Origin: Candidatus Woesearchaeota archaeon | GTDB taxonomy: Archaea > Nanobdellota > Nanobdellia > Pacearchaeales > GW2011-AR1 | Reading direction: 5' to 3' | Assembly (NCBI GenBank): GCA_964358765.1 | Contig: CAYHPN010000002.1 | Span: 62,863 to 126,862 of the forward strand | Length of the DNA stretch: 64,000 nt | In this document: one piece after another, positions 1,409 through 29,062 of the stretch | How the letters are laid out: each line of letters opens with the position of its first letter | Position numbering within the stretch: the first letter of the stretch is position 1 | The notes under the pieces: model-generated | Seen by the model: only the letters and a program-made list of their open reading frames with translations | What the model was told of the DNA's origin: nothing | Database searches by the model: none | Made by a program: the position numbers and the translations under genes

Positions 1409-2485
1409 ATGAAAAAGGTACTAAGAAATTTTGAAGTAGATTATATTCAGATAATGGATGAAAATGGTGAAGTAGATAAGAAACTTATGCCTAAAATAAA
1501 AAACGAAGAAATAAAAAAAATGTATGAACTTATGCTCTTGACAAGAGTATTTGATGAAAAAGCAGTAAAATTACAGAGAATGGGAAGAATTGGAACATAC
1601 CCTGCAGTGAAGGGAGAGGAAGCATGCCAGATTGGTTCTGCAATTCAGCTTGAAAAAGATGATTATGTATTTCCGGCATTTAGAGAGCATGGTGCTTTTA
1701 TTACAATGGGGGTTCCACTATATCAAATATTTCAGTATTGGGGAGGAGACGAAAGAGGAAGTAATTTTCCTAAAGATATTAAGTTGATGCCAGTCTGTAT
1801 TCCAATAGGCAGTCATTTACCTCATGCTGTTGGTGCGGCAATGGCGTTTAATTATTTAAAGAAGAAAAATCTTAGTGTAGTTTATTTTGGAGATGGAGCT
1901 ACTAGTGAAGGAGATTTTCATTCTGCGATGAATTTTGCCGGAGAATATAAAGCACCTACAATATTTATGTGTCAGAATAATCAATGGGCAATTTCTACTC
2001 CTGTAAAAGAACAGACCGCATCTTTTACAATTGCGCAAAAGGCAATTGCATATGGATTTGAAGGAATTCAAATTGATGGAAATGATGTTTTTGCAGTTTA
2101 TAGTGTTTTTAATGATGCAATAAAAAAGGCAAGAAGCGGGGGAGGCCCTACTTTTATTGAATGCTTTACATATAGAATGGGAGATCATACAACTAGCGAT
2201 GATGCAACAAGATACCGAACAGAAAAAGAAGTTAAGGAATGGGAAAAGAAAGACCCGATATTAAGACTGCGAAAATATATGATGAAAAATAAATTATTAA
2301 ATGAAAAAGTAGACGCCGAACTTGTTAAAAAATTTGAAAAACAGGTTGACGATGCTGTAGAGAAATATGAAAAAATAGAGCCTCAGAAAATTGAAGAGAT
2401 CTTTGCTTATACTTATAAAGAAATGACTCAAGAATTGAAAGACGAGCTTGTTAAATTGAAAGAAGATCTTAAAGGGACTGCTTAA
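1409..2485 (+). CDS. pdhA: pyruvate/2-oxoacid dehydrogenase E1 component, alpha subunit (TPP-binding)
   Basis: 358 aa. It carries the TPP motif YFGDGATSEGDFHSAMNFA...CQNNQWAIS and an RBS-like GAGGG upstream. Confidence 0.85.
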   Translation: MKKVLRNFEVDYIQIMDENGEVDKKLMPKIKNEEIKKMYELMLLTRVFDEKAVKLQRMGRIGTYPAVKGEEACQIGSAIQLEKDDYVFPAFREHGAFITMGVPLYQIFQYWGGDERGSNFPKDIKLMPVCIPIGSHLPHAVGAAMAFNYLKKKNLSVVYFGDGATSEGDFHSAMNFAGEYKAPTIFMCQNNQWAISTPVKEQTASFTIAQKAIAYGFEGIQIDGNDVFAVYSVFNDAIKKARSGGGPTFIECFTYRMGDHTTSDDATRYRTEKEVKEWEKKDPILRLRKYMMKNKLLNEKVDAELVKKFEKQVDDAVEKYEKIEPQKIEEIFAYTYKEMTQELKDELVKLKEDLKGTA

Positions 2486-2565
2486 AAATATTCTAAACTA
2501 TCATTATCAACTATAACATTATTAGTTCTGGGCAGAGAAAATGCAGATTTATTTAAATTTTATAC

Positions 2566-3012
2566 TTACGCCTTCCTAAAGTTATTTGTTAGAAATTTCT
2601 CTTCATAAGCTATGTGCTCCTGGAATTTATCTAGAAACATTTTCCCATCTGTTTCTAAGGCAGTCTGTAATTCTAAATCTGATTTGTTCTTAATGTAACC
2701 TATAATAACTTTCCAATGCCCCCTTAGATTTTTATGATCTGTAATTATTGTTTTATGATATGGGAAGTCATTATCTAATGTTGAAATAGTTTTGAAAAAA
2801 TTCTCTTCTTTTTCTTCATGCTGTGACCAGAAAGACTCAAATTTTCTTAATAAAGCTAGTAAAGTTTGACGATTAATTTTATCTTTAATAGAAGATTCAA
2901 TCTCTTTAAGAAAGTTTTTTATGACAACATGCTCCTCTTTAATCACCTTAATCGGATGCATAACGTGGAATGATGAGTAAAGTATATAAAACTTATGAAT
3001 TTTTGTTTTCAA
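2566..3012 (-). CDS. hemerythrin-like (HHE cation-binding) protein; probable true start at 2961
   Basis: Repeated H/E-rich helices (EEHVVIK, WSQHEEKEE, DHKNLRGHW, QEHIAYEEKF). The first 17 codons overlap the RT stop, so the internal ATG at 2961 (MHPIKV...) is more plausible. Confidence 0.4.
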   Translation of the reverse strand: MKTKIHKFYILYSSFHVMHPIKVIKEEHVVIKNFLKEIESSIKDKINRQTLLALLRKFESFWSQHEEKEENFFKTISTLDNDFPYHKTIITDHKNLRGHWKVIIGYIKNKSDLELQTALETDGKMFLDKFQEHIAYEEKFLTNNFRKA

Positions 3013-4079
3013 ATCTGAGATTTCTTCATAATAATTTTTATTATTGAATGTTTAATTTGTTTTCTTAGTTTGTAAGTATTCGCCCATTTAGCATAAGCTT
3101 GCCAACCCTGTAAAGTTTCCGATAATCTCTTCAAAGTAATTTTATCATATTCGAATGATAAGATTTTATTTTGTATTTTTCTTATATTTCTTTTTCTTAA
3201 TAATTTGAAATGGTAAAAATTTCTAAAACCTACAAAATCAACTCCTTTTGATAAAGATATTGTCTTTGATTTATCTTGATGAAGCTGAATTTTTAGTTTT
3301 CCTTTAAGAAATTTGCCTATTTCTATTTTCCATTTTTCTAACTGCTCTATTGATTCATTTAGAATAACAAAATCATCTACATATCTAATATAATACTTAG
3401 ATCTTAAATTATGTTTAACAAAATAATCTAATTCGTTTAGATAGACGTTTGCGAAAAATTGAGAGGTTAAGTTTCCTAATGGCATTCCAATTTTTTTTTG
3501 CTTTTCATTTATTAATCCATTTTCTAAAATCTTTTTGATTAAAATAATTACTTTGTTGTCTTTTATTTTTTTGTTGATTATTTGAATGAGAATTTCTTGA
3601 TCTACTTCATTAAAATAATGCCTTATGTCTGCCTTTAAACAATAACCTTTAATTTGGTTATTAGTGAACTGCCCATTAATTTTTCCATTTTTAGATACTT
3701 TTCTTATAAATTTGTCAAATCTCTTTATTGGAAATAAAGTTCCCTTGCCTTTTCTGTTTGCACATGAATCATAAATAAAGGTTTTATCAAAAATTGGTTC
3801 TAGGATATTCACAATTGCGTGGTGAACAACTCTGTCTCTGAAATGTGATTTTGAAATAACTCTTGTTTTTGGATCTCTTAGGATAAATGTTTTAAGAGGC
3901 AAGGGTTTGTAAATCTCGCTTAACAATTCTTCTCTTAAAATTGTGAGATTTATTTCTAGATTTTTCTCAAATTCAAGAACATAATTTTTGAGAGTTTTTC
4001 CAATTCTGGCCTTTTTATATGCTAATTCTAAATTGCCTAGAGATATTATTTTTGAATATAGATTTTTGTAGGTTTTCAT
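3009..4079 (-). CDS. DGR-type reverse transcriptase
   Basis: Catalytic YVDD box (YIRYVDDFVIL). Motif 4 reads MPLGNLTSQFFANVYL, the LGxxxSQ signature of DGR RTs, rather than the group II QGxxxSP. The N-terminus MKTYKNLYSKIISLGNLELAYKKARIGK is typical. The track ORF extends to 4211 only because it reads through the TR. Confidence 0.85.
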   Translation of the reverse strand: MKTYKNLYSKIISLGNLELAYKKARIGKTLKNYVLEFEKNLEINLTILREELLSEIYKPLPLKTFILRDPKTRVISKSHFRDRVVHHAIVNILEPIFDKTFIYDSCANRKGKGTLFPIKRFDKFIRKVSKNGKINGQFTNNQIKGYCLKADIRHYFNEVDQEILIQIINKKIKDNKVIILIKKILENGLINEKQKKIGMPLGNLTSQFFANVYLNELDYFVKHNLRSKYYIRYVDDFVILNESIEQLEKWKIEIGKFLKGKLKIQLHQDKSKTISLSKGVDFVGFRNFYHFKLLRKRNIRKIQNKILSFEYDKITLKRLSETLQGWQAYAKWANTYKLRKQIKHSIIKIIMKKSQI

Positions 4080-4102
4080 TGAAGTAAAAGCCATAAGCTG
4101 AG

Positions 4103-4188
4103 CCATTCTACCATTGCCATTGGAGTTATCAAGATCGTCCCTATTGGAGTTAAGATTCAAGTTCCTGTTGAGGTAAACACCATGAAGG
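4103..4188 (-). repeat. DGR template repeat (TR)
   Basis: 86 bp, aligning without gaps to 4627-4712. The coding (minus) strand is rich in AAY codons (it would read YLNRNLNLNSNRDDLDNSNGNGRM). It lies 23 nt upstream of the RT start codon. Confidence 0.85.
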
Positions 4189-4280
4189 CAACTTCTTAGC
4201 CCATTAACCATTTATTTTTATCCTTAAGTTTATCTAATTATTTTGTTTTCTGTTTTAAGGACTCGACACCATCAAAACAT

Positions 4281-4317
4281 ATGTCAAGAACTATTCGAGT
4301 TCTTGAGCACACAAGAT
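4281..4317 (-). repeat. family A structured element copy (in the DGR VR-TR spacer)
   Basis: Minus strand reads GTGTGCTCAAGAACTcgaatAGTTCTTGACAT. The same TCAAGAAC / GTTCTTGACAT arms occur at 24151, 35221 and 63750. Confidence 0.6.
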
Positions 4318-4588
4318 TTGGTAAACCAAATGCTTGATGTTTCAATTTTACTTTACTTAATGCGGTGATTGAATTTTACTGGCTTTGCAATGTCAAAAAA
4401 AAACAAAGCACTATTAATGGACGTGTGGCCCAGCCATTTTATATGGCTAGGAGTATTAGAATGAAAATCAAGTTTTTATTCTTTTCCTTTAATTATTTCT
4501 GATCCTATTTCTAAAGCTCTTTGATATCTTTCTCTAACCTCATCTAATTCTGCTTCTTGTTTTCTTTGCATTTCTGCAATATAACTGC

Positions 4589-5350
4589 CTAAGAATTTTT
4601 TTGCGTGGCCTGGCCACTAACAACCACCACCCTACCATCGCCATCGGAGTCATCAAGATCGACCCTATGGGAGCCAAGAACCAAGTACCCGCTGAGGAAA
4701 ACACCATTAAGGTCTGAATTACCTTTGTAATGATGTCTATTGCCTTGGCCTAAATTTTTAGGCAATCCTGTTTGTTCATCAATATCAGTAGAATTGAAAT
4801 TGCCTTCTTTATCTAATATAGGTGCATAAATTAAACTTGCGTTTTCTCCCAATTTAAATGATAATCCATGAGGAGAAGCTTGATCTGTTTGCAATTCTAG
4901 CCCAGCTAATGGAATCATTATTGGAGTTTTTATTTTTGGTTGTCTTTGTTTAACTTGATCATAAAGGACCTTAGCAAGATAAGAATTTGGTTTATCTGTG
5001 TTTCTTAAAACTAAAGCTGAATCTTCATAAGTTACATTCAATGACAATGCCTTTGTCTTAAGAATATTCTCTAAATCTGCAGGGGTTGCAACTCTTAATC
5101 CTTGCTCAGCAACAATTTGATTCATTAAAACTACTGCGAAAAGATTTGATCCGGTTACTTTTTCCCCATCGTAATTTAGAACATTTAATGCTTTATTTCC
5201 ACTATAATCTAATTTTACCCTCGCTTTATATTCTTCTAAAGCTCTTTTGCCGAAATCTCCGACTAGAAAATTCGCCTGTGAAATAAATCTTGGAACCTCA
5301 ATAAGAGGTTTTCCGACAAAATTTGGAAATGTTTTTGTTTCGCTTGCCAT
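4589..5350 (-). CDS. DGR variable (target) protein with a C-terminal VR
   Basis: 253 aa. The VR encodes FLSGYLVLGSHRVDLDDSDGDGRV near the C-terminus. The internal GLRVATPADLENIL resembles the (W/Y)RLPTxxELE motif of DUF1566 / FGE-type C-type-lectin-fold DGR targets. Confidence 0.75.
   Translation of the reverse strand: MASETKTFPNFVGKPLIEVPRFISQANFLVGDFGKRALEEYKARVKLDYSGNKALNVLNYDGEKVTGSNLFAVVLMNQIVAEQGLRVATPADLENILKTKALSLNVTYEDSALVLRNTDKPNSYLAKVLYDQVKQRQPKIKTPIMIPLAGLELQTDQASPHGLSFKLGENASLIYAPILDKEGNFNSTDIDEQTGLPKNLGQGNRHHYKGNSDLNGVFLSGYLVLGSHRVDLDDSDGDGRVVVVSGQATQKNS
4605..4617 (-). promoter_or_regulatory. GC-rich hairpin 9 nt downstream of the VR (candidate DGR target-recognition hairpin)
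   Basis: GTGGCCAGGCCAC on the minus strand, a near-perfect palindrome and the most GC-rich spot locally. Its position just 3' of the VR matches the hairpin/cruciform known from the Bordetella phage DGR. Confidence 0.5.
4627..4712 (-). repeat. DGR variable repeat (VR)
   Basis: 86 bp inside the last ~40 codons of ORF 4589-5350. It has 16 mismatches to the TR, 15 of them where the TR coding strand has A. Confidence 0.85.
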
Positions 5351-5504
5351 GAATTCAGTAGAAAACTAGCATATTTAAATCTTTCTATTTTGTTACTACT
5401 ATTAAGTTTTATTAAGTTTTTCGAAAAGCTTAAATATCATTGTGTATCATTATAAGTAGGATTCTTTCAAGAATTCTTATTAAATTAAAAAAATTTTAAA
5501 TAAA

Positions 5505-5759
5505 ATGGAAATAGAAGCAATAACAAGGAAATGGGGGAATTCAATCGCTGTAATTATTCCTAATGATTTTGTTATTAAAGAAGGCATTAGAGAAAATCAA
5601 GCAATTAAGATAGAGGTTAAGAAAAAGAAACCTAAAGCAGGGGTTTTATTTGGATTTGCAAAAGATTGGAAAAGACCAACCCAAGAAATAAAAGATGAAA
5701 TGAGACAAGGATGGATGAGTAAATCAGATAGGGAAGAAGAGAAAACGTGGAGGAAATAG
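5505..5759 (+). CDS. vapB: AbrB/MazE-fold antitoxin (VapB-like)
   Basis: RKWGNSIAVIIPNDFVIKEGI is a SpoVT/AbrB swapped-hairpin motif. The ORF overlaps the downstream PIN gene by 13 nt. Confidence 0.65.
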   Translation: MEIEAITRKWGNSIAVIIPNDFVIKEGIRENQAIKIEVKKKKPKAGVLFGFAKDWKRPTQEIKDEMRQGWMSKSDREEEKTWRK

Positions 5760-6121
5760 TTTATTTTTTTGATAGTTATGCAATAATTGAAATTTTAAAA
5801 GAAAATAAAAATTTCGAAAAATATGTGAACGAGACTGCGACAATAACGATTTTTAACTTGGCAGAAATATATTGGGCCGCACTTAGAGATTTTGATGAAG
5901 AGAAAGCTAATGAGATTTATGAACAATATAAAGAGGCAGTTGAAGAGATTGATGATGAAACTCTAAAAGAAGCAGTAAAATTTAGAAAAGAACATAAAAA
6001 ACAAGATTTGTCATATACTGATTGCATCGGTTATATTTATGCAAAAAGAAATGGAATGACATTTTTAACAGGAGATAAGGAATTTGAGCAAATGAAAAAT
6101 GTTGAATTTGTAAAAAAGTAA
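5747..6121 (+). CDS. vapC: PIN-domain toxin (VapC-like)
   Basis: Acidic PIN residues sit in FFDSYA, TDCIGY and LTGDKEF. The protein is 124 aa. Confidence 0.65.
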   Translation: MEEIVYFFDSYAIIEILKENKNFEKYVNETATITIFNLAEIYWAALRDFDEEKANEIYEQYKEAVEEIDDETLKEAVKFRKEHKKQDLSYTDCIGYIYAKRNGMTFLTGDKEFEQMKNVEFVKK

Positions 6122-6124
6122 AAA

Positions 6125-7132
6125 TTAAATTTGACCAACCAGCCAATTTTCAAGTTCTTCCAGATGATCCTTTGAACTGGAATGGGAGATTTTTAGATTA
6201 TTTATTGCTTTCTTAATTGATTCTTTATCATAACTAATATCTTTAAATGAAGATTCTAATGAATGAATTAAATCTGTATCTAGAGCATCTGAAAACACTT
6301 TTGCTGTTTCTACCTTGTTACCTTTAACATTTAGATGTATGTCCAGACATGCCCAAGAAAGTCTTTCTTCTAAATGATGAGTAAACTCCAAGGTTTCTCC
6401 TAAACGCCAAGAGTCGCTTTTTAACAAATTGTAATAATCCGATAATTCTTTTATTTGTGCTAATTTATTATGATCTAGAAGTTCTATATCTTTTTCTGAA
6501 TTATGAAAAGTAAAAAACTCTTGAATTATTGCATTTGAAAGCGATTCATAGGATATACTATTATTAAATTCCTTTAAATTTTCAACTCTGGAACGAACGG
6601 ATGTAGTTCCTTTTGCCTGAAGCTTTTTAGGAGAAGGAGTTAAATAATTTTGAAGTTCTTCTAAATTTACATGCATCATCAAAGTTCCGTGATGAAACGC
6701 TCTATCTGGTTTTTCCTTGAATGCACTTCCTGAAACTTTTTTTCCGTCAACTAGAATATCATTTCTCCCAGATTTTTCTGTCGAGATATTAAACTTTTTT
6801 AATGCATTTATTATAATCTGAAAATTCTTGTTTTTATCATAGTTATCTTTAGAAGAAAGAAAGGTAAAATTCATGTTGCCTAGATCTTGGAAGACTGCTC
6901 CACCACCTGAATGTCTTCTAACAAGGTTTATCTTGCTCTCTTGCATTTTATTTAAATTGCATTCTGCATGGGGATTTTGATTTCTTCCTATAATAACTGA
7001 ACGATCGTTTTGCCAGAGAAATAAAATTTCTTGATTAGGTTCTAAATCATTGAAAATCCAGTCTTCTATTGCTAAATTCAGATAGGGATCGTGTGTTGTT
7101 GAAATAAAACATTTTGCTGATTTAGTTTCCAT
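6125..7132 (-). CDS. lplA: lipoate-protein ligase A
   Basis: RRHSGGGAVFQDLGNMNFTF and GRNDILVDGKKVSGSA motifs; 335 aa. Confidence 0.85.
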   Translation of the reverse strand: METKSAKCFISTTHDPYLNLAIEDWIFNDLEPNQEILFLWQNDRSVIIGRNQNPHAECNLNKMQESKINLVRRHSGGGAVFQDLGNMNFTFLSSKDNYDKNKNFQIIINALKKFNISTEKSGRNDILVDGKKVSGSAFKEKPDRAFHHGTLMMHVNLEELQNYLTPSPKKLQAKGTTSVRSRVENLKEFNNSISYESLSNAIIQEFFTFHNSEKDIELLDHNKLAQIKELSDYYNLLKSDSWRLGETLEFTHHLEERLSWACLDIHLNVKGNKVETAKVFSDALDTDLIHSLESSFKDISYDKESIKKAINNLKISHSSSKDHLEELENWLVGQI

Positions 7133-7201
7133 ATGGAAACAATTATTAGTTAATATTTAAATAATACTGAATATACCTTATAAAATAAAAAGAGAGGAAG
7201 A

Positions 7202-8182
7202 ATGGCAAAACTGAATATTATTGAAGCGATAAATCTTGCCCTAAAGCAGGAAATGAAAAGAGATAAAAATATAATTCTAATGGGGGAGGATGTTGGAGAG
7301 GATGGGGGAGTATTTAGGGTTACTGATGGATTGTATAAATTATATGGAAATGATAGGGTGCTTGATACGCCCTTAACCGAGCAGGGAATAATTGGAACTG
7401 CTATTGGTATGTCTATAGTTGGACTGAAACCAATTTGTGAAATACAATTTGAGGGTTTTATTTATACCGCGGTTGATCAAATAATAAATCACTTGGCTAG
7501 AATAAGAAATAGAACGAGAGGAAAATTTAATTGTCCAATTGTTATAAGATGCCCAATAGGCGGAGGAATTAAAGCACTTGAGCATCATTCTGATTCTCCT
7601 GAAAGTCTTTTTATTCATATGCCTGGAATAAAAGTTATATTGCCTTCAACACCTTATGATGCCAAAGGATTACTAATTGCTGCTATAAGAGACCCCGATC
7701 CAGTAATATTTTTTGAACCTAAGAAAATTTACAGAGCTATTAAAGAGGAAGTTCCAGAAGAAGATTATATTGTAGAGATTGGAAAGGCTAAAATAAGAAA
7801 AGAAGGAAAGGATGTAACTCTTATTACTTATGGTTCTTCTGTAAAAACAGCAATGGAAGCAGTTGAACATATGTCTGGAATTGATGTTGAGGTAATTGAT
7901 TTAAGAACACTGTCGCCTCTAGATGATAAGACGATAATTGAATCTGTGAAAAAAACAGGGAAAGTTGTTATTGTTCATGAAGCTGTTAAGACTTTAGGAC
8001 TAGCGGCTGAAATAATTGCAAGAATAAATGAAAAGGCATTTTATAGTTTAGAAGCACCAATTGAAAGAGTAACTGCTCCGGATATAATTGTTCCATTGCC
8101 AAAAAACGAGGATAAGTATATGATTAATCAGCAGAAGATTATTAATGCTGTGAATAGGGTTATAGAGAATTCAAAAAAGTAG
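7202..8182 (+). CDS. pdhB: pyruvate/2-oxoacid dehydrogenase E1 component, beta subunit
   Basis: Transketolase-like pyrimidine-binding and C-terminal domains (GEDVGEDGGVFRVT, DTPLTEQGIIG, FEPKKIYR, DLRTLSPLD). Confidence 0.85.
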   Translation: MAKLNIIEAINLALKQEMKRDKNIILMGEDVGEDGGVFRVTDGLYKLYGNDRVLDTPLTEQGIIGTAIGMSIVGLKPICEIQFEGFIYTAVDQIINHLARIRNRTRGKFNCPIVIRCPIGGGIKALEHHSDSPESLFIHMPGIKVILPSTPYDAKGLLIAAIRDPDPVIFFEPKKIYRAIKEEVPEEDYIVEIGKAKIRKEGKDVTLITYGSSVKTAMEAVEHMSGIDVEVIDLRTLSPLDDKTIIESVKKTGKVVIVHEAVKTLGLAAEIIARINEKAFYSLEAPIERVTAPDIIVPLPKNEDKYMINQQKIINAVNRVIENSKK

Positions 8183-8251
8183 AACTTGAATTCTCTAATT
8201 GGACAATTCAAAAAAACAAGATTGAATTGTCCATAGGAGTAATGCGAAGAA

Positions 8252-11200
8252 ATGATGAAAAATGTAAAAAAGACAAATAAACATAAAAGAAATGTTATAT
8301 ATCTGCTTATCTTATTATCGATAGTTGCAATATTAATTTTGATTGGTATTTGGAATACATTTAGAGGTGACGGAAAAGTCTCGCTTTCTGCTGAAAAAAT
8401 AACCCATACAAATTCTTTTTCATATCAAGATCAAGATAATGGAGAAATTAAAAAAATAAATGAAGGAGATTACCAGGTAAAAAAGACTTCCAAATATTAT
8501 ATTTTAATTAATAAAAATAAACTTTATGTTTTCTCTAATGAAGGTAAATATATGTGGTCTAGAGTAGAAATGGCTGAAAAAATATCAATTGAAACCATTA
8601 ATGATTTAAATAATGATGGATATGAAGAAATAGTTGTTGCACCTAAAAAGAGTTCAATTCCTATTACAAAAGTTGTAGATGGAAAAACTGGAAATTTGAT
8701 AAGTTCAATAACTACATACAAAGAAACATATAAAAATAATATCCCAACATCGAATGAAGTAATATTGAAGAATGGTGGTGAAGTTTTTATATTTAATTTA
8801 GATGGAGGTTATAAATTAAATGGAATTAATTTTGAAAAGATTCTTGAAACTGAATCATTGATAATTGATGCAAAAAAGATGGGAGAAAATTTAATTGTTG
8901 CAGATTTATTCAATATCTACTCTTTTAATTCTGATTATAGTAAGATAAACACTTATCCAATTGTAAATAGTGATTTTTATATTGGTAAAAATTATATATA
9001 TGTTAGACAGGATGAATATATTAATCGTCAAATGATTAATTATTTATCAATATTTGATAAAAATCTTAATTTAGTCAATAAATTTGAGTTTAATAATAAG
9101 ATAATAGATATATTCTCTGATGACCTAGTTTTTTTGGATAATAATAACTCAGTTTATTTGGTGAACTCTAATGGATTAAAAGAATCAAAAGTTTTTGATG
9201 TCAATCCTACTGATTTTGAATACCAGGTTATAAATGATAATTTTATTTTCAAACAGGACAACGTCATTAGAAAAATCAAGGATGGGGTGGCAGTTACTAT
9301 TTATAAAATTCCTTCTGAGTTTTTACTGAAGAAATTTATGGTTGTTGATGAGTCTAATATAGCAACTATAGATGAAGAATCAAAAAAATTAAATATATTA
9401 AACGGAGTCAGCAGTATTTTTGAATTTAATTTTGGAGGCAAAGAATTAACTTATGATCAAGGAAGTTCTGACTTCTCAATATGGAATGAATACCCGTTCT
9501 TCTATAAATATAAAGATTACAAAGGAGATTTAAAACAATTAATAAATAATAAAAAATTTGAGGTAATAGGTATTGAAAATATTGAAGATATTAATAATGA
9601 TGGAGAAGATGAATTTATTCTTAAATTAGGTGAAAAGAATAATTATGGAATAAATGCAATAATCTTATTTTATCCAAAATTAGGTACAGGCAAGAAAATT
9701 ACATTTATTCCTAGTGTTGGAGAGAAATTAGTGGTTATTAACGAAACTACAACAAAAATTAATGAAACAAATAAAAATCTTAAAATAAAAAAACAAGAAG
9801 TGGATTCTCTAAATAAAGACTTAAGTGATTATCAGGAAGAATTACAAATAGAGGATAATGTAACAAGACAAAACTTCATTATTCAAGAAATGAATAAGAT
9901 TAACAATAAAATTAGTTCTTTACAAACTGAGATTTATAAACTAGAAAATGAAAAAATTGATTTAGATAATCAAAAATCTAATATAGAATCTCCAGATTTA
10001 GTGAATCAAAAGAAAATAAGAAAATTTAGTTTTGACAAAGACGGTTTATTAATAATATTGTCTAATGGGGAAACATATAAGATAAAATACTCTCCCTATG
10101 AAGAAAGCAAATTAGAATTAAATTCTTACAATCAAGAATATGCGGGCGATATTAATAATGACGGAATCACTGATTTAATAGGGTTAAAACAAGACTCTAT
10201 AGATTTGCTAGATGGGAAAACACTTGAACCGATGTGGTCAAAAAATATTGCTGGTATTATAGATTTCTGGAGAATTGATAATGCATTAATATTACAGACT
10301 TCCCTTGGAATAATAAGTTTAAGACTTAGTGATGGGATGGAATTAGAAAGAAGAGACTTTGATTCGAACAATTTTCCTGGATTTATGACAAAAAATAAAA
10401 AAGCGGCGATATTTAGCAATCATTATGGTGTGCAGATATTTGGTGAAAAATATTATGATTTAAAAATAGAAAACTTAGGAATATCTTATGGAACAAACAT
10501 GGATAATTTTAATGCTTTATACGACTGCAATAAAGATGGTAACGATGAAGTTGTATTTGGAGTAAATAATAAGTATTCTGAAAATGCAAATAAAATAATT
10601 TTATATTGTATAGATCCAAGAATTGGGCAGAAGACAAAAGAAATTGTTGTAATTGATAGCGAACGTCAAATTGCTAATTATGGTAAATTTGGTAATATCT
10701 TTGGTAATTCAATGGGGGGATTAAATAATTATGATTATGTTTATTCTGAAAGCAATAGTTTAATACCTTTGAAAAAAACAACAAATTCATTAATTTTAGA
10801 ATTTGGATCTAATGATAATCCGGCTAGTTATTCTTTAGAATCTTATTCAATTATAGATTCTTTTGGATTATTAACAAGCTTAATATTAGATGCTGAGAAT
10901 AAGGTTAAATATGTTAACTTTGGAAATAGATTGAGAATAAGAAGTGGAAAAATCTTTAATTCATTTGGAAAAGAAATACCTATTAATGATAATAGAGATC
11001 TTAATATGAATAGAGAATCTGATGGTTTTACAATAAGTGGCGGAAATAATAAATTTATTTTTATAAATGATAAACTTGTTACCTACTCTGATAAAAATGA
11101 AGATTTTGTAGGAACACTAGATGAAAAGAACCCAATATATTTATTATCTTCGATGCCTGAATATGAGATATTTGAAATTTACTTTAGCCAAGAAAATCTA

Positions 11201-11302
11201 AGAAAGAGAATGTCCCCAATACCAATATTAATTATTTTACTTGAAATATCATTGCTAGTTATATGGATAATCTTAAAATTAAAATGGAAGAAGAAAGAAT
11301 AA
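8252..11302 (+). CDS. large membrane-anchored surface protein with FG-GAP/VCBS-like Ca-binding repeats and a central coiled coil
   Basis: 1016 aa with N-terminal and C-terminal TM helices. It has four DxNxDGxxE loops (NDLNNDGYEEIVV, DINNDGEDEFIL, GDINNDGITDLIG, DCNKDGNDEVVFG) and a heptad-rich segment around aa 500-600. Confidence 0.5.
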   Translation: MMKNVKKTNKHKRNVIYLLILLSIVAILILIGIWNTFRGDGKVSLSAEKITHTNSFSYQDQDNGEIKKINEGDYQVKKTSKYYILINKNKLYVFSNEGKYMWSRVEMAEKISIETINDLNNDGYEEIVVAPKKSSIPITKVVDGKTGNLISSITTYKETYKNNIPTSNEVILKNGGEVFIFNLDGGYKLNGINFEKILETESLIIDAKKMGENLIVADLFNIYSFNSDYSKINTYPIVNSDFYIGKNYIYVRQDEYINRQMINYLSIFDKNLNLVNKFEFNNKIIDIFSDDLVFLDNNNSVYLVNSNGLKESKVFDVNPTDFEYQVINDNFIFKQDNVIRKIKDGVAVTIYKIPSEFLLKKFMVVDESNIATIDEESKKLNILNGVSSIFEFNFGGKELTYDQGSSDFSIWNEYPFFYKYKDYKGDLKQLINNKKFEVIGIENIEDINNDGEDEFILKLGEKNNYGINAIILFYPKLGTGKKITFIPSVGEKLVVINETTTKINETNKNLKIKKQEVDSLNKDLSDYQEELQIEDNVTRQNFIIQEMNKINNKISSLQTEIYKLENEKIDLDNQKSNIESPDLVNQKKIRKFSFDKDGLLIILSNGETYKIKYSPYEESKLELNSYNQEYAGDINNDGITDLIGLKQDSIDLLDGKTLEPMWSKNIAGIIDFWRIDNALILQTSLGIISLRLSDGMELERRDFDSNNFPGFMTKNKKAAIFSNHYGVQIFGEKYYDLKIENLGISYGTNMDNFNALYDCNKDGNDEVVFGVNNKYSENANKIILYCIDPRIGQKTKEIVVIDSERQIANYGKFGNIFGNSMGGLNNYDYVYSESNSLIPLKKTTNSLILEFGSNDNPASYSLESYSIIDSFGLLTSLILDAENKVKYVNFGNRLRIRSGKIFNSFGKEIPINDNRDLNMNRESDGFTISGGNNKFIFINDKLVTYSDKNEDFVGTLDEKNPIYLLSSMPEYEIFEIYFSQENLRKRMSPIPILIILLEISLLVIWIILKLKWKKKE

Positions 11303-12213
11303 TAACTATTAGAAATTTGAGTAAGCAATTTAAAAATAAAGGAATTGTAGCTAAAGCAGTAGATGACATTAGTTTAGATATCTTAAAAGGAAAGATATAT
11401 GGTTTTGTGGGGCATAATGGCTCTGGAAAGACAACCACAATTAAGATGATTCTTGGTTTAATTAGACCAAGCTCTGGAGAAATTAAAGTTAATTGGGAAG
11501 GCAATGTTAAGAACTATGGTCTAGGATACGTACCTGAAAGAGCCGTTATTTACGATGATATGTATCCACTAGAATATTTAATTTATATTGGAGAATTAAG
11601 TGGTCTTGATAAAAGTACATCTAGAAAAAATGCCGAAGATTATATAAAAATATTTGGTTTAGAAACAGCTAAAAATAAGAAGATAAAAACATTTAGTTCT
11701 GGAATGAAACAAAAAATACTCATTTCTCAAGCATTGTTACATAGTCCATCTTTAATGATTCTTGATGAACCTACAACGGCTCTCGACCCAGTAGAGCAAA
11801 AGAAACTACTTGATATTTTAGGAAAATTATCAAAAGAAAATGGTTCAACGATAATTATGAGTAGTCATCATTTACAAGAATTAGAAATGATTGCAGATCA
11901 TGTATTCTTATTTGAAAATGGGAAGATTGTGCTTGACTCTGATATAAAAGACATGAAAAAATCAATTAAGGGACAAATTGAAATAAAGACCACAAACCCA
12001 GAAAAAGTATTAAATATCCTTAGAAAAGAATTGAATATAAGAGATATAATTCTTTCTGGAGATAAGATAATAATTAATGATGATCGTCTTAGTTCTTCTT
12101 CATTTAAAAATACGATAATTAAAAAAATTATGGACTTTGGGGAAGATGTACTTTCAATTTCATCTTCATCGAAATCGTTTTACGATTCAGTAATGGAGAA
12201 ATTAAAAAAATGA
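11263..12213 (+). CDS. ABC transporter ATP-binding protein
   Basis: Walker A GHNGSGKTT, signature FSSGMKQK and Walker B LMILDEPT. Confidence 0.85.
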   Translation: MDNLKIKMEEERIITIRNLSKQFKNKGIVAKAVDDISLDILKGKIYGFVGHNGSGKTTTIKMILGLIRPSSGEIKVNWEGNVKNYGLGYVPERAVIYDDMYPLEYLIYIGELSGLDKSTSRKNAEDYIKIFGLETAKNKKIKTFSSGMKQKILISQALLHSPSLMILDEPTTALDPVEQKKLLDILGKLSKENGSTIIMSSHHLQELEMIADHVFLFENGKIVLDSDIKDMKKSIKGQIEIKTTNPEKVLNILRKELNIRDIILSGDKIIINDDRLSSSSFKNTIIKKIMDFGEDVLSISSSSKSFYDSVMEKLKK

Positions 12214-13136
12214 GAAATATATTATTAATATCAAAAAAAGAACTTAGCAGACATCTAGGAATATTTAGGAATGTGATTTACATTTCTCTTATAGTCTTGG
12301 TAGCTACATCGATATTATTTTTTTCATTATCTGCGGTTAATGGATATCAGGATGTAAATGCTTATATGTCGGGTCTAATTATTACTTTAGGTTTTTATTG
12401 GATTGCAGGCGTACCATTTTTGATATATATGGGCTCACTCACTATTGGAACGGTTTCAAATGAGTTTAGAAAAGGAACAATTTTATTAATTTTAACAAGA
12501 CCTGTAAAGAGAATTGAATTTTTCTTAGGAAAATTTTTGGGCTTATTTATTTATGGAAGTATATTAAACATAACAATTATCTTATTTGTTACTTCACTTA
12601 CAAGTTTAATGCTTAGACTGCCGAGTTCTATTGTGATTTCTGCTTATTATGCCTCGTTTTCATTTATTATTTACAGCTGCGTGGTTTGTGCATTTATTAT
12701 TTGTTTTGGATTAATTCTTTCTGTTATTGTGAAAAGTTCAAGAATATCTATGGTAATACTCTTTGTTTTTATTTTATCTCTGCTTTTCTTACCTTTGTTT
12801 CTAAAACAAATCTCTCCAGAATATCAAAATAAATATCCGGATGTGGCATTCTTATTTGGGTCTACAAATATTGGAATATCTGAAATTTTAGGAATAAATA
12901 TACATCCTTCTGTAACAACTGGGTTATCTCATTTTTCAGGAATATATAAAGATAATCCATCGTATAAAAGCCGGCATTATAATTATCAAAATATAATTTA
13001 TCCTGAGTATATATTAAAAAAGCCACTTAAAATATTGAACATCCCTTTTTATTTATCTGTAATTCTAATGTTAATACTTATCTTAATTATATTCGTATTC
13101 TCATTTTTTATATTTAAGAGGAAAGAGTTTTATTGA
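12210..13136 (+). CDS. ABC-2-type transporter permease
   Basis: 308 aa with about 6 predicted TM helices. An ATGA overlap couples it to the ATPase gene. Confidence 0.6.
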   Translation: MRNILLISKKELSRHLGIFRNVIYISLIVLVATSILFFSLSAVNGYQDVNAYMSGLIITLGFYWIAGVPFLIYMGSLTIGTVSNEFRKGTILLILTRPVKRIEFFLGKFLGLFIYGSILNITIILFVTSLTSLMLRLPSSIVISAYYASFSFIIYSCVVCAFIICFGLILSVIVKSSRISMVILFVFILSLLFLPLFLKQISPEYQNKYPDVAFLFGSTNIGISEILGINIHPSVTTGLSHFSGIYKDNPSYKSRHYNYQNIIYPEYILKKPLKILNIPFYLSVILMLILILIIFVFSFFIFKRKEFY

Positions 13137-13192
13137 GAGTCAAAAAAGTAACATTTAAATAGTAATATCATTTGATATTATAATATTCGAAA

Positions 13193-13498
13193 ATGGAAAC
13201 TCTATTAAAGAAGAAGGAAAGTTATTTTGAAAGCAATGAGATAGCGAGGTCTCCAACTCTTCAAACTGTATTAATGGTAGAGAAGTATATCAAAGACAAT
13301 TCTGGAGAATATAAAAAAACAGAACTATTTAATAAATTACCAAAAAAAGTAATGTGGCAGACTTTTCAAGTAATAATGGAATATTTGGAGAGCAATTTAA
13401 AAATTGTATATGACGTTGAAGGATATGTAGTTTATATTTGGAATCCTCAATTCGCAGCCAAATATAATGACAGACATGATTTAACATGGAAGGGATAG
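13193..13498 (+). CDS. hypothetical protein, candidate antitoxin of the downstream RelE/ParE-like gene
   Basis: 101 aa, overlapping the next ORF by 13 nt. I recognised no motif. Confidence 0.3.
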   Translation: METLLKKKESYFESNEIARSPTLQTVLMVEKYIKDNSGEYKKTELFNKLPKKVMWQTFQVIMEYLESNLKIVYDVEGYVVYIWNPQFAAKYNDRHDLTWKG

Positions 13499-13809
13499 TA
13501 AAATTTGTGGATGAAAGTTTGAAGAAAGCATTTGAAAATTTAAAAGATATTGATTTGGATTTATATGAACAAATTGATAAGGCTACGGATGAAATTAAAA
13601 ATAATGTCTTCTGTGGTAGAAATGTCAAAAAAAAATTAATCCCAAAAGAATTAATTCAAAAATATGGCCTCGATAATTTATGGATTTATAATTTAAGAAG
13701 CGGATGGAGGTTGATTTATTCTGTATCTTCACCAGATAAAATTCAAATTTTTGCGATAGTCCTTGATTGGATGAACCATAAAGATTACGAGAGGCTATTT
13801 AAATTTTAG
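13486..13809 (+). CDS. RelE/ParE-superfamily toxin-like protein
   Basis: The C-terminal pattern GWRLIYSVSSPDKIQIFAIVLDWMNHKDYERLF resembles the RelE/ParE core strand-strand-helix end. Confidence 0.45.
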   Translation: MEGIVKFVDESLKKAFENLKDIDLDLYEQIDKATDEIKNNVFCGRNVKKKLIPKELIQKYGLDNLWIYNLRSGWRLIYSVSSPDKIQIFAIVLDWMNHKDYERLFKF

Positions 13810-13823
13810 ATTTATAGAAAGAT

Positions 13824-14519
13824 ATGAAAAAAGCAATTGTTTTATGTTCTGGCGGAATGGATAGCGTTATTACGGCACATTATGTTAGAAAGAGGCTAAA
13901 ATATGATAAAATAACACTTTTGTTTTTTAATTATGGGCAGAAAAGTCTGAATTCTGAGAGGAAGAGTGTTTTGAAAAGTGCTAGAGAATTGAAAGCTGAT
14001 TTTAAAAAAATAAAATTGCCTGAATTAAAAAAATTATCTACATCTTTAATAAATATAAATGGAGAAATTAAAAAATTAAACAAAGAAGATTTGAAAAATA
14101 CGAAAAAGGAAAGCGAGAAATGGTACGTGCCTTGCAGAAATTTAATATTTCTGAGCTACGCTCTTGCTCTTGGAGAAAAAGATTTTGTAAATGGAAGGAA
14201 GAGAAACGATATCTTTGTTGGATTTAAAAATGAAGGAAAGGAAAGTTTTTCGGATACTACGGGAAAATTTGTTGAACTAGTAAATAAAATAAGCCACAGA
14301 GGAAGCGAAGGAAAATGCAGAATTTATGCTCCTCTTATTAAGAAAGATAAGGAAGATATTGTAAAATTGGGAATGAAACTAGGAGTAAAACTGCAAGATA
14401 CATTTAGCTGTTATATTGGAAATAAGAAACATTGCGGAAAATGTTTAGCATGTATGTTACGCAAGGAAGGATTTTATTGGGCTAATGAGTTGGATGAAAC
14501 TGAATATAAGATCAATTAG
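13824..14519 (+). CDS. queC: 7-cyano-7-deazaguanine synthase
   Basis: PP-loop LCSGGMDS and a C-terminal Zn cluster CYIGNKKHCGKCLAC. Confidence 0.8.
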   Translation: MKKAIVLCSGGMDSVITAHYVRKRLKYDKITLLFFNYGQKSLNSERKSVLKSARELKADFKKIKLPELKKLSTSLININGEIKKLNKEDLKNTKKESEKWYVPCRNLIFLSYALALGEKDFVNGRKRNDIFVGFKNEGKESFSDTTGKFVELVNKISHRGSEGKCRIYAPLIKKDKEDIVKLGMKLGVKLQDTFSCYIGNKKHCGKCLACMLRKEGFYWANELDETEYKIN

Positions 14520-14553
14520 GAAATATTATAAAGACTGAAAGTATAATTTTATT

Positions 14554-14937
14554 ATGGATAAAGAAACAGAATTAAATCTCAATAAAATTGTTGACAAGAT
14601 ATCTAAAAATAAGAAAGTAAAAGCTATATTTCTATTTGGAAGTCAAGTAAATGGAAGAGCGAGAGAAGACTCTGATGTTGATATTGCAGTGCTAACTAAA
14701 GAAATAAATATTGATGAAGAATGGAAAATATCTGGAATTGGAAATGAAAAATTTGAAATTCATATCTTCAATAGATTGCCTTTAGTAATTCAATTTAGAG
14801 TTATAAAAGATGGCAAACTTCTTTTTGTTAAGGATGAGAGATATTTACATGATGTTTGGAGATATGTAGTTAGCAGATATTTAGATTTTCAACCATTTAT
14901 TGATAGATTCTATCAGAGGGTAATTGAAAATGTTTGA
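14554..14937 (+). CDS. mntA: minimal nucleotidyltransferase (MNT) antitoxin
   Basis: GSQVNGRAREDSDVDIAV is the NTase GS...DxD motif. The ORF overlaps the downstream HEPN gene. Confidence 0.7.
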   Translation: MDKETELNLNKIVDKISKNKKVKAIFLFGSQVNGRAREDSDVDIAVLTKEINIDEEWKISGIGNEKFEIHIFNRLPLVIQFRVIKDGKLLFVKDERYLHDVWRYVVSRYLDFQPFIDRFYQRVIENV

Positions 14938-15370
14938 TAAACAGAGAATTGGAATGATGATCGATAATATTGAGGAGTATAATAAAGATCTAGAAAAGTA
15001 TAAGATTAAAACAAAAAACGATCTTAATGATAAAAAAACTTTTTATGCATCTTCAATGATAGTGTTTTCAATTTTGAATAGGGTAATTGATTTAGGAAAT
15101 GAAATTATATTAAATGATCATTTGGGATCTCCAAGCACATATGAAGATGTTATGCCAAAATTAGTTAAGGGTGAAATAATGAATGATAAAGAAGCAAAAG
15201 AATTAAATAAATTAATTAAAAAAAGAAATATTTTTGCACATTTCTATGGGGAGATTAATAGAGAAGACTTATATAATATAATAAATAAATTAAATTTAGT
15301 TGATAATTTTATCAAAAAAATAAAAAAAAGAATGATGATTAAACAAGGAGAGGATGAAGATGCCATTTGA
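14924..15370 (+). CDS. hepT: HEPN-domain (DUF86) toxin
   Basis: RNIFAHFYGEI is the Rx4-6H HEPN motif; 148 aa. Confidence 0.7.
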   Translation: MKMFDKQRIGMMIDNIEEYNKDLEKYKIKTKNDLNDKKTFYASSMIVFSILNRVIDLGNEIILNDHLGSPSTYEDVMPKLVKGEIMNDKEAKELNKLIKKRNIFAHFYGEINREDLYNIINKLNLVDNFIKKIKKRMMIKQGEDEDAI

Positions 15371-16673
15371 GTTTAAATTTCCTGATGTGGGGGAAGGAAT
15401 ACAGGAAGGGGAAATTGTTAAGTGGTTAGTAAAAGAAGGAGATGAACTCAAAGCCGATCAGACTATGGTACAAATTGAAACTGACAAGGCAGTTGTTGAT
15501 ATACCTTCTCCAAGAAACGGAATTCTATTAAAAATTAATTACAAAGAAGGAGAAAAAGTTAAAGTTGGTGCAGTTTTAGTTGTTATTGGAGATAAAGGCG
15601 AAAAGGTAAAGAGTGAAGGAAAAACAGAAGAGAAAAAAGTTGAGAAGAAAAAGAATGATGAAAAAGCTCCTAAAAAGGGACAGAGTGTTGTTGGACAACT
15701 TGAAGAAGCACCTGATGAAGATGAAGAAGTTGAAGAAAAAAAACATTCAGATGTTATGACGGGGGAAAAACAAACTGCAAAAGTGCTTGCGTCTCCTGCT
15801 ATAAGAAAAATTGCTTCTGAGAATAAAATTGATTTGACTGAAATTAAAGGAAGCGGAGAAGGCGGAAAAATTCTTAAGAGTGATATTGACAAGTTTATTT
15901 CAAAAAATGTTGAGGAAAAACCTGAAATTCCTCAGCAAACTATAACTGTTAAAAAGAAATATGATGATTTTGGATATTTGGAGAGAGTGCCTTTAAAAGG
16001 AATAAGAAAAACTATAGCTGAACATATGTCTATCGCATGGGAAGAAGCGCCACAGGTAACTAGTATGGAAGATATTGATGTAAGCGAATTATGGAAAATG
16101 AGGGAAAAAGAAAAGAGAACGGCAGAAAAATTAGGAATTAAATTAACGTTTTTACCTTTAATCGTTAAAGCGACTATTGCAGCACTAAAAGAAAATCCCA
16201 TTTTGAATTCAATGATTGAGGGAGATGAGATCTTAATTAAAAAATATTTTAACATTGGAATTGCAACAGAGACAGAAGTTGGACTGATGGTCCCTGTAGT
16301 TAAAATTGCACAGAATAAAAGTATTTTAGAAATTGCAAAAGAGATTACAGAATTGTCTGAGAAAGCAAAAAATAGAACGATAGATATTATGGATTTGAAA
16401 GGTGGAACGTTTACCATAACAAATTATGGAAGTGTTGGAGGAATGTATGGAACTCCAATTATAAATTATCCTGAAGCAGCTATTTTAGGACTAGGGAGAA
16501 TTTTTGATAGAGTAGTTATGGATGAAAAAGGAAAACTGCGAAATGTAAAGATATTGCCTGTTTCACTTACCTTTGACCATAGAATCGCTGATGGCGGACA
16601 GGCAGCTCGTTTTCTTGAATCATTAAAAATGTTTTTAGAAGATCCTGAACATTTGATGTTAGAATTGAAATAA
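15354..16673 (+). CDS. pdhC: dihydrolipoamide acyltransferase E2 component
   Basis: Lipoyl domain IETDKAVVDIPSP, E3-binding segment ASPAIRKIA and catalytic LTFDHRIADGGQAARF. Confidence 0.85.
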   Translation: MKMPFEFKFPDVGEGIQEGEIVKWLVKEGDELKADQTMVQIETDKAVVDIPSPRNGILLKINYKEGEKVKVGAVLVVIGDKGEKVKSEGKTEEKKVEKKKNDEKAPKKGQSVVGQLEEAPDEDEEVEEKKHSDVMTGEKQTAKVLASPAIRKIASENKIDLTEIKGSGEGGKILKSDIDKFISKNVEEKPEIPQQTITVKKKYDDFGYLERVPLKGIRKTIAEHMSIAWEEAPQVTSMEDIDVSELWKMREKEKRTAEKLGIKLTFLPLIVKATIAALKENPILNSMIEGDEILIKKYFNIGIATETEVGLMVPVVKIAQNKSILEIAKEITELSEKAKNRTIDIMDLKGGTFTITNYGSVGGMYGTPIINYPEAAILGLGRIFDRVVMDEKGKLRNVKILPVSLTFDHRIADGGQAARFLESLKMFLEDPEHLMLELK

Positions 16674-24585: not shown

Positions 24586-24586
24586 T

Positions 24587-24865
24587 TCACTCCTTTTTTT
24601 GTTTCCTGTATCTATGTATAATATCTACAACTTCGTCTTCTCTTAAATCTGATTTTTTCGCTGATTCTCGGAGTGATTTAGTAATCTCATTGAAAGATTT
24701 ATCATTGGATATTTTCTTAATAATCAATGTATTTCCTTCTAAAATAAATAATACCTTTTCTCCTTCAACTAACTCTAACTCCGACCTTATTTTGGAGGGT
24801 ATTGCTATCTGTCCTCTAGAGCTTATTGTTCCTAGTTCGATTGTTCTGTTTGCCATTTTATGCAC
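24587..24865 (-). CDS. AbrB/SpoVT-type antitoxin of the interrupted PIN gene
   Basis: GTISSRGQIAIPSKIRSELELVEGEKVLF motif. The stop lies 1 nt from the PIN start. Confidence 0.7.
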   Translation of the reverse strand: MHKMANRTIELGTISSRGQIAIPSKIRSELELVEGEKVLFILEGNTLIIKKISNDKSFNEITKSLRESAKKSDLREDEVVDIIHRYRKQKKE

Positions 24866-28968: not shown

Positions 28969-29062
28969 AGGTTTTGTAGGAAAAAATTAATCTTGAATTT
29001 GTTTGGAATTTTAATTATTTTGTAATACATAAATTTAAATACTTTTGTGCATCATAAACTAT

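Follow-up and report, generated by a model that had tools for sequence, protein, structure and literature searches.

Does the repeat pair beside a reverse transcriptase (RT) gene in this archaeal chromosome belong to a complete diversity-generating retroelement (DGR), and how might such an element manage without the accessory protein Avd? The window analysed here is a 64,000-nt stretch of contig CAYHPN010000002.1 from a Candidatus Woesearchaeota archaeon, to whose numbering all coordinates refer. A sequence-only reading of it had proposed a mutagenic-homing DGR in which a template repeat (TR) and a variable repeat (VR) diversify the C-terminus of open reading frame (ORF) 4589-5350, and this proposal is upheld by the restriction of TR/VR differences to adenines, by the DGR-type RT and by the presence of the cassette in 13 relatives. 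The locus is very probably a complete chromosomal DGR with the Avd-less target-TR-RT architecture typical of DPANN archaea. It has the defining features of such elements: the RT type, adenine-restricted TR/VR differences, a VR within the target gene with the TR beside the RT, and a difference between the initiation of mutagenic homing sequence of the VR (IMH) and its counterpart in the TR (IMH*).

Re-alignment of 4103-4188 with 4627-4712 yielded an 86-nt direct repeat without gaps, at 81% identity and a spacing of 524 nt, which is the longest repeat within window positions 2500-6000. The ungapped alignment with 16 mismatches given earlier was thereby reproduced base for base, and the in-frame translations of both copies were identical to those quoted. 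Rather than being spread over non-adenine sites of the TR, which the sequence-only reading had named as evidence against a DGR, 15 of the 16 mismatches lie at a plus-strand T (a minus-strand A) of the TR, at the same coordinates as had been listed. The minus strand of the TR holds 26 adenines, again in agreement, and the probability of at least 15 of 16 mismatches falling on them by chance is 4.9e-9 (hypergeometric). The sole non-A mismatch, at 4184 (C in the TR, A in the VR), lies 5 nt from the 5′ edge, where it had been placed before, and the homology from 4103 to 4183 (81 nt) is free of non-A differences. At the mismatched sites the 4627-4712 copy carries G ten times, T four times, and C and A once each. 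Since the bases of the VR copy are mixed and A is found only in the TR copy, the pattern is directional and the reverse assignment of TR and VR fails. These differences at adenines show that the VR has been overwritten by adenine-mutagenised copies of the TR. Of the 26 TR adenines, 25 occupy codon positions 1 and 2 in the frame of ORF 4589-5350. The TR contains eight AAY codons, not seven as first counted, and the claim that all of them are replaced in the VR holds (8/8). Without its last two codons, the TR has 15 mutable codons, eight of them AAY, giving about 2.4e13 possible proteins with no stop created. A scan of the 64-kb window for further VRs found no second copy matching the TR at non-A sites.

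Two of the 15 adenine differences, at 4106 and 4107, belong to a fixed mark rather than to mutagenesis. The VR ends in GGTAGGGTGG and the TR in GGTAGAATGG, and the distinction between GAAT (TR) and GGGT (VR) is fixed in 21 of 21 TR/VR pairs of the family, in which TRs end in ...GG[TC][AC]GAAT[AG]. and VRs in ...GGGT[AG]. (3′ ends). The first of the two base differences is synonymous (AGA versus AGG, both Arg), so the constancy does not reflect protein selection on random outcomes and points instead to an IMH/IMH* mark at the DNA level. Positions 4106 and 4107 therefore do not count as mutagenesis, and of the 15 mismatches that had been assigned to it, 13 remain. We infer that GGGT and GAAT mark the recipient and the donor; a matching TGGGGT/TGGAAT distinction was described by Paul et al. 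(2015; PMC4372165).

Downstream of the VR, most target-family genes carry a recognisable GC hairpin with a 5-8-bp stem, 10 nt after the IMH, and the window has an inverted repeat at the same position and with the same kind of stem (GTGGC/GCCAC). Among the target-family genes scanned, the triloops of the best-scoring hairpins were GAA in 25 cases and GCA in four, and a few others, read by eye, were GGA. GCGAAGC is a classic DNA mini-hairpin of very high stability.

By its sequence, the enzyme encoded beside the TR is a DGR-type RT. It matches RVT_1 in Pfam (1.2e-19) and PHROG 1423, reverse transcriptase (3.6e-113), and among all PDB chains its best match, over the full length, is 8ub7_A (E = 4.8e-40, 141 bits), a chain deposited as “Reverse transcriptase” which, from its sequence, we take to be the bRT of the Bordetella phage. 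Group-II-type RTs in the PDB score 79 bits or less (E 1e-21 or weaker), and the block IG.P.G.LTSQ.FANVY is common to the window RT and 8ub7_A. No NCBIfam RT model reaches its curated cut-off: the best, the group II RT/maturase model TIGR04416, reaches 141 of the 300 bits required, and the retron model 46 of 235, with the Drt3a, retron and Drt2 models as weaker matches. The YVDD and LGNLTSQ motifs that had been pointed out are both present, the latter as PLGNLTSQ, and by PDB scores the RT is closer to 8ub7_A than to group-II-type RTs. Clustering with group II or retron RTs, like a missing LGxxxSQ motif, had been named as counting against a DGR; LGxxxSQ is present. With the RTs of related loci the window RT shares 59-69% identity, and it keeps all family-invariant motifs. 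One earlier boundary has to be corrected: judged by alignment to the RTs of related loci and to 8ub7_A, the real start is ATG 4079 (MKTYKNLY...), whereas gene callers predict 400 aa from ATG 4211, the first 44 codons being in-frame read-through of helix c′ (described below), the TR and the spacer. The RT ORF of 3009-4211 is thus over-extended, and the same annotation artefact (window 4080-4211) is likely repeated in related loci.

Support for this cassette as a homing system also comes from its relatives. We found 42 loci with target relatives in species-representative genomes, all but two labelled DPANN or unclassified archaea; the two exceptions are metagenome-assembled genomes with bacterial labels. 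The same layout, consisting of one or two targets, a gap, the TR, a spacer and the RT, occurs in 13 of the 42 and in the window, with a gap of ~300-440 nt (~1.0-1.2 kb in three), a TR of 84-90 nt and a spacer of 23-65 nt. In every one of them the TR and VR differ almost exclusively at A. Across 21 TR/VR pairs of the family, 251 of 502 A sites are changed, as against nine of 1195 non-A sites, and the changes are A>G in 70%, A>T in 26% and A>C in 4%. At non-A sites, TRs are 99.2% identical to the VR of their own locus and 65% identical to the VRs of other loci, and the window TR is 100% identical to its own VR at these sites and 52-76% identical to other TRs. High identity within loci combined with low identity between them indicates concerted evolution, as repeated homing would give.

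Four of the 42 loci belong to Nanoarchaeota SCGC AAA011-D5, presumably one of the DUSEL4 single-cell genomes from which the first archaeal DGRs were described, although the accession is absent from the text of that paper. In this genome (contig ASMP01000001.1; loci L012, L006 and L019) one TR, at L012:7074-7159, matches three VRs that lie in paralogous targets spread over ~55 kb. None of the 57 non-A sites of the TR is mismatched in any of the three, and 19-22 of its 29 A sites are, differently in each VR. One TR with three differently mutated VRs shows that the family is mutagenically competent and able to act in trans. Beyond sequenced genomes, more than 583 related RTs are found in metagenome contigs, many of them from groundwater including the Hainich aquifer, and the window locus itself recurs at 99.97-100% identity in several independent assemblies from Hainich well H43. 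In one of these (L043; 0.2 um, coverage 4) two bases differ, at window positions 5260 and 5272 in the 5′ part of the target, and the target gene call there comes to 178 aa, shorter than in the window; the VR shows no change, and the differences are of low coverage.

The protein that would be diversified gave no sequence match in Pfam, NCBIfam, PHROG or the PDB over its 253 aa. It has at least 155 homologues in DPANN archaea at 48-58% identity, whose sources, where named, are Pacearchaeota, Woesearchaeota, Aenigmatarchaeota, Nanoarchaeota or simply archaeon, and a profile search of 1.8 billion cluster representatives returned 1007 at E <= 1e-3 and 315 at E <= 1e-30. Aligned homologues have in common the scaffold GLSxLxLxxxLxLxSxxDxLxxSxxxGRVVVVS, whose x positions vary from one protein to another and coincide with TR-adenine codons. 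An AlphaFold2 model is a single confident domain (pLDDT 92.8), with an N-terminal strand (26-28) followed by two helices, VR strands at 214-219 and 225-229, and a terminal strand at 242-245. The top Foldseek matches of this model in the PDB are nearly all C-type lectin domains, none significant (E >= 0.066, TM <= 0.48), and those in BFVD are weak matches to crAss-like and tail-collar-fibre proteins (E >= 0.013). A divergent C-lectin fold is plausible on the basis of this model, and the VR-bearing surface is probably the ligand-binding surface.

A described counterpart is AvpA, an archaeal target with a divergent C-lectin fold (Handa et al., 2016; PMC5006420). The two resemble each other in size (256 aa versus 253-295 aa), in having a single globular domain, a short VR of ~27 residues near the C-terminus and an invariant IMH-encoded beta-strand, and in a helical tail whose DNA carries the hairpin. 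They differ in that there is no detectable sequence relationship and the Foldseek C-type-lectin matches are non-significant: AvpA was not among the matches at E <= 10 when all PDB chains were searched with phmmer and with a profile, and the AvpA motifs GxxVVVYAH, HPxxxPFxG and RFxGV are absent from the target-family alignment (A1). The helical C-terminal tail carried by long-form homologues is cut off in the window by two frameshifts, one at 4596-4602 in a T7/A7 run, which reads A7 on the minus strand, and a second near 4572-4590, and survives as a 31-aa ORF. When repaired, this reading is colinear with the tail of the homologue P0034, to which it is 43% identical over 44 aa (E = 2e-9). The sequence is the same in independent assemblies, which rules out sequencing error. 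A programmed frameshift was considered for the 31-aa ORF and rejected, because two shifts would be needed and many homologues end at the same site; several end at the homopolymer itself. Upstream of the target (window 5351-5390, minus strand) lies a TTTAAATA box centred ~25 nt before the ATG, with no Shine-Dalgarno sequence, an arrangement that fits an archaeal promoter giving a leaderless mRNA.

A second conserved component of the element is an RNA leader. Alignment of 14 loci revealed strong non-coding conservation upstream of the TR, and a motif, G[CT][CT]ACA[ACT]G[CT] (GYYACAHGY), was located in 54 distinct loci of the window RT clade with diverse TRs, at a distance of 170-380 nt before the start of the RT. 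The ACA of this motif is present in all 14 loci chosen without reference to it. Covariation supports a model in which three helices, a:a′, b:b′ and c:c′, hold the TR in a three-way junction with a leader of ~250 nt upstream. In b:b′, the 8-12 nt before the leader motif are predicted to pair with the U of IMH* GAAU and the first bases after the TR (in the window, A4426 pairs with this U), and b′ and a′ together (4089-4105) extend over the final 3 nt of the TR and the greater part of the 23-nt spacer between TR and RT.

In an anchored alignment of the 54 loci, 81.5% of b:b′ cells were paired, compared with 66.2 +/- 1.1 in shuffled controls, none of 500 of which was as high, and the covariation score was 0.509 against 0.249 shuffled. 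Slid registers gave 22-49% pairing, nine of the 12 pairs showed double changes, and one position is U:A in 31 loci and C:G in 22, with none unpaired. The leader anchor motif and GAAT served to locate the strands, and independent covariation comes only from the other helix positions. For a:a′, the mean longest complementary run in the 54 loci was 8.0 for matched strands and 6.54 +/- 0.17 for permuted partners; for c:c′ the corresponding values were 10.39 and 7.79 +/- 0.19. RNAalifold, run on an unbiased MAFFT alignment of 24 loci, found c:c′ with 10 pairs, seven of them compensatory. Because c′ ends 85-98 nt before GAAT in most loci, it lies immediately 5′ of the TR. The 401-nt RNA of the window, folded on its own by minimum free energy, contains all three helices (-96 kcal/mol, z = -3.0), and the window carries extra insertions in the internal leader domain (4209-4412).

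Plain MAFFT plus RNAalifold recovered only c:c′ because the short spacers were misaligned; recovery of helices a and b required the strands to be extracted by anchoring and compared with permuted partners. An nhmmer model of the junction, too short for sensitivity, gave 22 matches. An alternative fold is also possible, in which part of a forms a local pairing with the 5′ portion of b, and b′ with a′; the half of b:b′ nearer the TR is the one segment confined to the long-range fold. In relatives, a TATA box immediately before helix a was considered and rejected as unproven, since the AT-rich bases there also extend a:a′. A scan for bacterial promoters and terminators did no better than on shuffled sequence, its models being bacterial and uninformative for an archaeon.

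Avd is present in ~74% of DGRs and is not universal. Among ORFs of at least 30 aa in the VR-TR gap, the region searched, we found none of Avd-like size in the window or in 13 relatives; the sole ORF in the gap of the window is the 31-aa tail relic. In the catalogue of Wu et al. (2018; PMC5758913), 29% of DGRs have no accessory gene, and the authors proposed Avd-independent homing. Their architecture A1, a TR-RT arrangement without avd, HRDC or another accessory gene, is that of the window, but A1 describes gene order only, and a conserved upstream leader with helices is not part of the description. An earlier survey of RNA elements covered only 40 nt upstream of the TR.

By analogy with BPP-1, TR-containing RNA would be reverse-transcribed with random incorporation opposite A, and the cDNA would replace the VR, reprogramming up to 15 codons. 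On the model drawn from the 54 loci, the TR RNA would form the single-stranded arm of the three-way junction, with a:a′ and b:b′ linking the leader to the short spacer and the final bases of the TR, and c:c′ closing a leader domain of ~200 nt directly 5′ of the TR. In BPP-1, TR 118-129 pairs with a strand of the spacer, priming occurs at TR G117 from the 2′-OH of spacer A56, and a duplex between upstream and downstream RNA halts cDNA synthesis (Handa et al., 2024). In the same manner b:b′ would abut the AA of GAAU like a template:primer duplex and c:c′ would be placed like the stop element, the geometry of the junction setting the start of the cDNA (AA of GAAU) and its stop (at c′). A tentative extension of this analogy, which we regard as possible though rather doubtful, is that in the Avd-less archaeal clade the structured leader replaces both Avd and the downstream spacer, clamping the TR and supplying the primer strand and the priming adenosine from upstream. 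A conserved adenosine of the GYY-ACA-H junction would then prime the cDNA through its 2′-OH, with A4426 and A4424 as candidates, and c:c′ would stop synthesis ~10 nt beyond the 5′ end of TR/VR homology. If true, leader priming would be a permuted, protein-independent version of the priming and stop architecture of BPP-1.

Compared as a whole with BPP-1 (mtd-avd-TR-brt), the window element has a homologous RT over its full length (E = 4.8e-40 to 8ub7_A, taken as bRT), adenine-specific transfer from TR to VR, IMH/IMH* asymmetry, a GC hairpin after the VR and an AAY-rich TR. In both, the RNA flanking the TR on its two sides pairs mutually and with the 3′ end of the TR (Handa et al., 2024). In contrast to BPP-1, the window has no Avd, its TR-RT spacer is 23 nt rather than ~140 nt, the strand at the initiation site is drawn from a leader ~240 nt upstream of the TR rather than from the downstream spacer, the hairpin has a triloop in place of a GRNA tetraloop, and the target does not belong to the FGE-type C-lectin tail fibres. 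A closer match is offered by the nanoarchaeal DGRs of Paul et al. (2015; PMC4372165), which share with the window the order target-TR-RT, the lack of a convincing Avd, an orphan single-domain target of ~250-300 aa, an IMH after the VR, the VR having GGGT where the TR has GAAT, and a GC hairpin with a trinucleotide loop inside the target ORF. The window departs from them in its single target, a CAG rather than a GRA loop, the frameshift-truncated tail and its Hainich aquifer host. It also matches archaeal DGR clade 5 of Roux et al. (2021), in which targets are without recognisable domains.

Two alternatives would deny that the locus is a DGR. The repeat could be an ordinary duplication diverged by point mutation, its adenine pattern being coincidence or compositional bias; nothing favours this beyond the AT-rich composition of the genome, and it is barely credible given the strength of the adenine restriction (P = 4.9e-9), its direction, with A in one copy only, its repetition in the 21 TR/VR pairs of relatives and the DGR RT adjoining the repeat. 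Alternatively, the RT could stem from a group II intron, a retron or a defence system and adjoin the repeat incidentally. The best NCBIfam match, to group II RT/maturase, and the weaker ones to the Drt3a, retron and Drt2 models lean in that direction, but all lie under their curated cut-offs (141 bits against 300 for the best), 8ub7_A scores 141 bits against at most 79 for group-II-type RTs, the LGxxxSQ motif is present, Rfam shows no intron or msr/msd-like RNA in the window, and the TR-RT arrangement is kept across relatives, all of which makes this account exceedingly improbable.

Several observations nevertheless weigh against a complete DGR of the kind proposed. All independent Hainich groundwater assemblies in which the locus was found carry one and the same VR, and no VR variant turned up in the 90% cluster of the target protein, exact-protein look-ups returning identical VRs only; an exact-pattern scan of metagenome contigs with the TR adenines set to N gave no matches, and missed the source contig itself as well. 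The target fold is only weakly C-type-lectin-like and its C-terminal tail is frameshifted. The hairpin loop of the window is CAG, the sole such case among the target-family hairpins scanned, and its a:a′ is shortened to 7 bp instead of ~10 by ATGGCTTTTA in a′ where relatives have ATGGCTAGGA. In the 54-locus set the leader anchor motif and GAAT are invariant by construction, having been found through their pattern, and with no Avd-size ORF in the VR-TR gap the mechanism of BPP-1 is not transferable unchanged.

Much of this would be accounted for if the element were a recently disabled relic, in which the VR was rewritten in the past, homing was lost through the change of the hairpin loop from GAA to CAG and the a′ mutations, and the VR has since been frozen. 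The unique loop fits such a history, as do the altered a′, the frameshifted tail and the uniform VR; the DNA of the window no longer favours folding into the post-VR hairpin, whereas that of relatives does, and loop size and loop sequence are both critical for homing in BPP-1 (Guo, 2011). A second, truncated DGR RT in the window indicates that such elements decay in this genome. On the other hand, the RT ORF is intact with all family-invariant motifs, helices b:b′ and c:c′ are intact, and the absence of non-A TR/VR differences over 81 nt means that any inactivation was very recent. The loop requirement, moreover, is known from BPP-1 and not from archaeal DGRs, and consensus assemblies from one aquifer cannot show minority variants. 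We consider a disabled relic unlikely and retain the reading of a complete DGR, while present diversification by the window copy is unproven. Table 1 gives the coordinates of the components.

Table 1. Components of the DGR and of the surrounding gene cluster in the window.
Feature	Position	Strand	Remarks
DGR RT, 356 aa	3009-4079	minus	Matches RVT_1, 8ub7_A and PHROG 1423
TR	4103-4188	minus	Repeat alignment with VR; non-coding in function; 23 nt upstream of RT start
VR	4627-4712	minus	Differs from TR at 15 TR-A sites and one edge site
Target (variable-protein) gene, 253 aa	4589-5350	minus	VR encodes residues ~213-241
31-aa ORF, relic of the target C-terminal helical tail	4476-4571	minus	Two 1-nt frameshifts
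IMH-like VR 3′ end, GGTAGGGTGG	4627-4636	minus	Encodes invariant G-R-V; GGGT versus GAAT in TR
GC-rich inverted repeat, GTGGC-CAG-GCCAC	4605-4617	minus	Candidate target-site hairpin/cruciform, 10 nt after IMH
Helix a, upstream strand AGCCATA	4442-4448	minus	Predicted to pair with a′ (4089-4095); permuted-partner control, minimum free energy
Helix b, upstream strand GGCTGGGCCA	4426-4435	minus	Predicted to pair with b′ (4096-4105); covariation
Junction linker C-A-C	4423-4425	minus	Between helices b and c; part of GYYACAHGY
Helix c, upstream strand GTCCATTAAT	4413-4422	minus	Predicted to pair with c′ (4199-4208); RNAalifold
Internal leader domain	4209-4412	minus	Enclosed by c:c′; conserved motifs ATAAAATTCAA, ACATTAAGTA, GAAATATGAAG..GTGGTGA; local hairpins
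Helix c′, downstream strand GTTAATGGGC	4199-4208	minus	Ends 10 nt 5′ of TR
Strand b′ TGGCTCAGCT	4096-4105	minus	Predicted to pair with b
Strand a′ TATGGCT	4089-4095	minus	Predicted to pair with a
Dehydrogenase cluster, E1-alpha-like	1409-2485
Dehydrogenase cluster, LplA	6125-7132
Dehydrogenase cluster, E1-beta	7202-8182
Dehydrogenase cluster, E2	15354-16673

The window DGR is chromosomal, not viral. The genes flanking it are a MazE/PIN pair, a hemerythrin-domain ORF and LplA. A MazE-type antitoxin (5505-5759, plus strand) and a PIN toxin (5747-6121, plus strand) lie directly beside it, and on its other side the hemerythrin-domain ORF (2566-3012, minus strand) overlaps the end of the RT gene by 4 nt in the same orientation, and has a TTG start. 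The block of DGR, toxin-antitoxin and hemerythrin genes is embedded in a 2-oxoacid/pyruvate dehydrogenase cluster (window 1409-16673). Neither Rfam nor a tRNA scan gave a match anywhere in the 64 kb.

Elsewhere in the window, a second DGR-type RT fragment at 24997-25332 (minus strand) preserves the C-terminal ~110 aa, at 70% identity to residues ~245-352 of the RT at 3009-4079, with its 5′ part missing. It has no associated TR or VR and appears to be a decayed second DGR. Directly downstream of the fragment are a second MazE-like ORF and a truncated PIN_3 ORF (24423-24865, minus strand), so that both DGR copies, the intact one and the fragment, adjoin toxin-antitoxin modules. Upstream, the fragment is abutted by an AAA_14/DUF4143 ATPase gene (25443-26717, plus strand), which has a paralogue less than 4 kb away (29045-30307, plus strand).

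As an element, the window locus is ordinary, one more archaeal DGR among the tens of thousands of DGRs catalogued, and its wider meaning lies in the family to which it belongs. Clustered at 50% identity, the target family, nearly all of it from DPANN archaea, comprises 1000 clusters or more, and neither a Pfam model nor a solved structure exists for it. It has the look of a scaffold dedicated to DGRs and would lend itself well to structural studies of a varied binding surface in symbiotic archaea. The comparison set additionally provides a concrete, covariation-supported RNA model for a class of Avd-less DGRs, whose defined helices and candidate priming adenosine make the priming and termination of cDNA in the absence of Avd testable. 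A conserved RNA scaffold of this kind may explain how such elements function without Avd.

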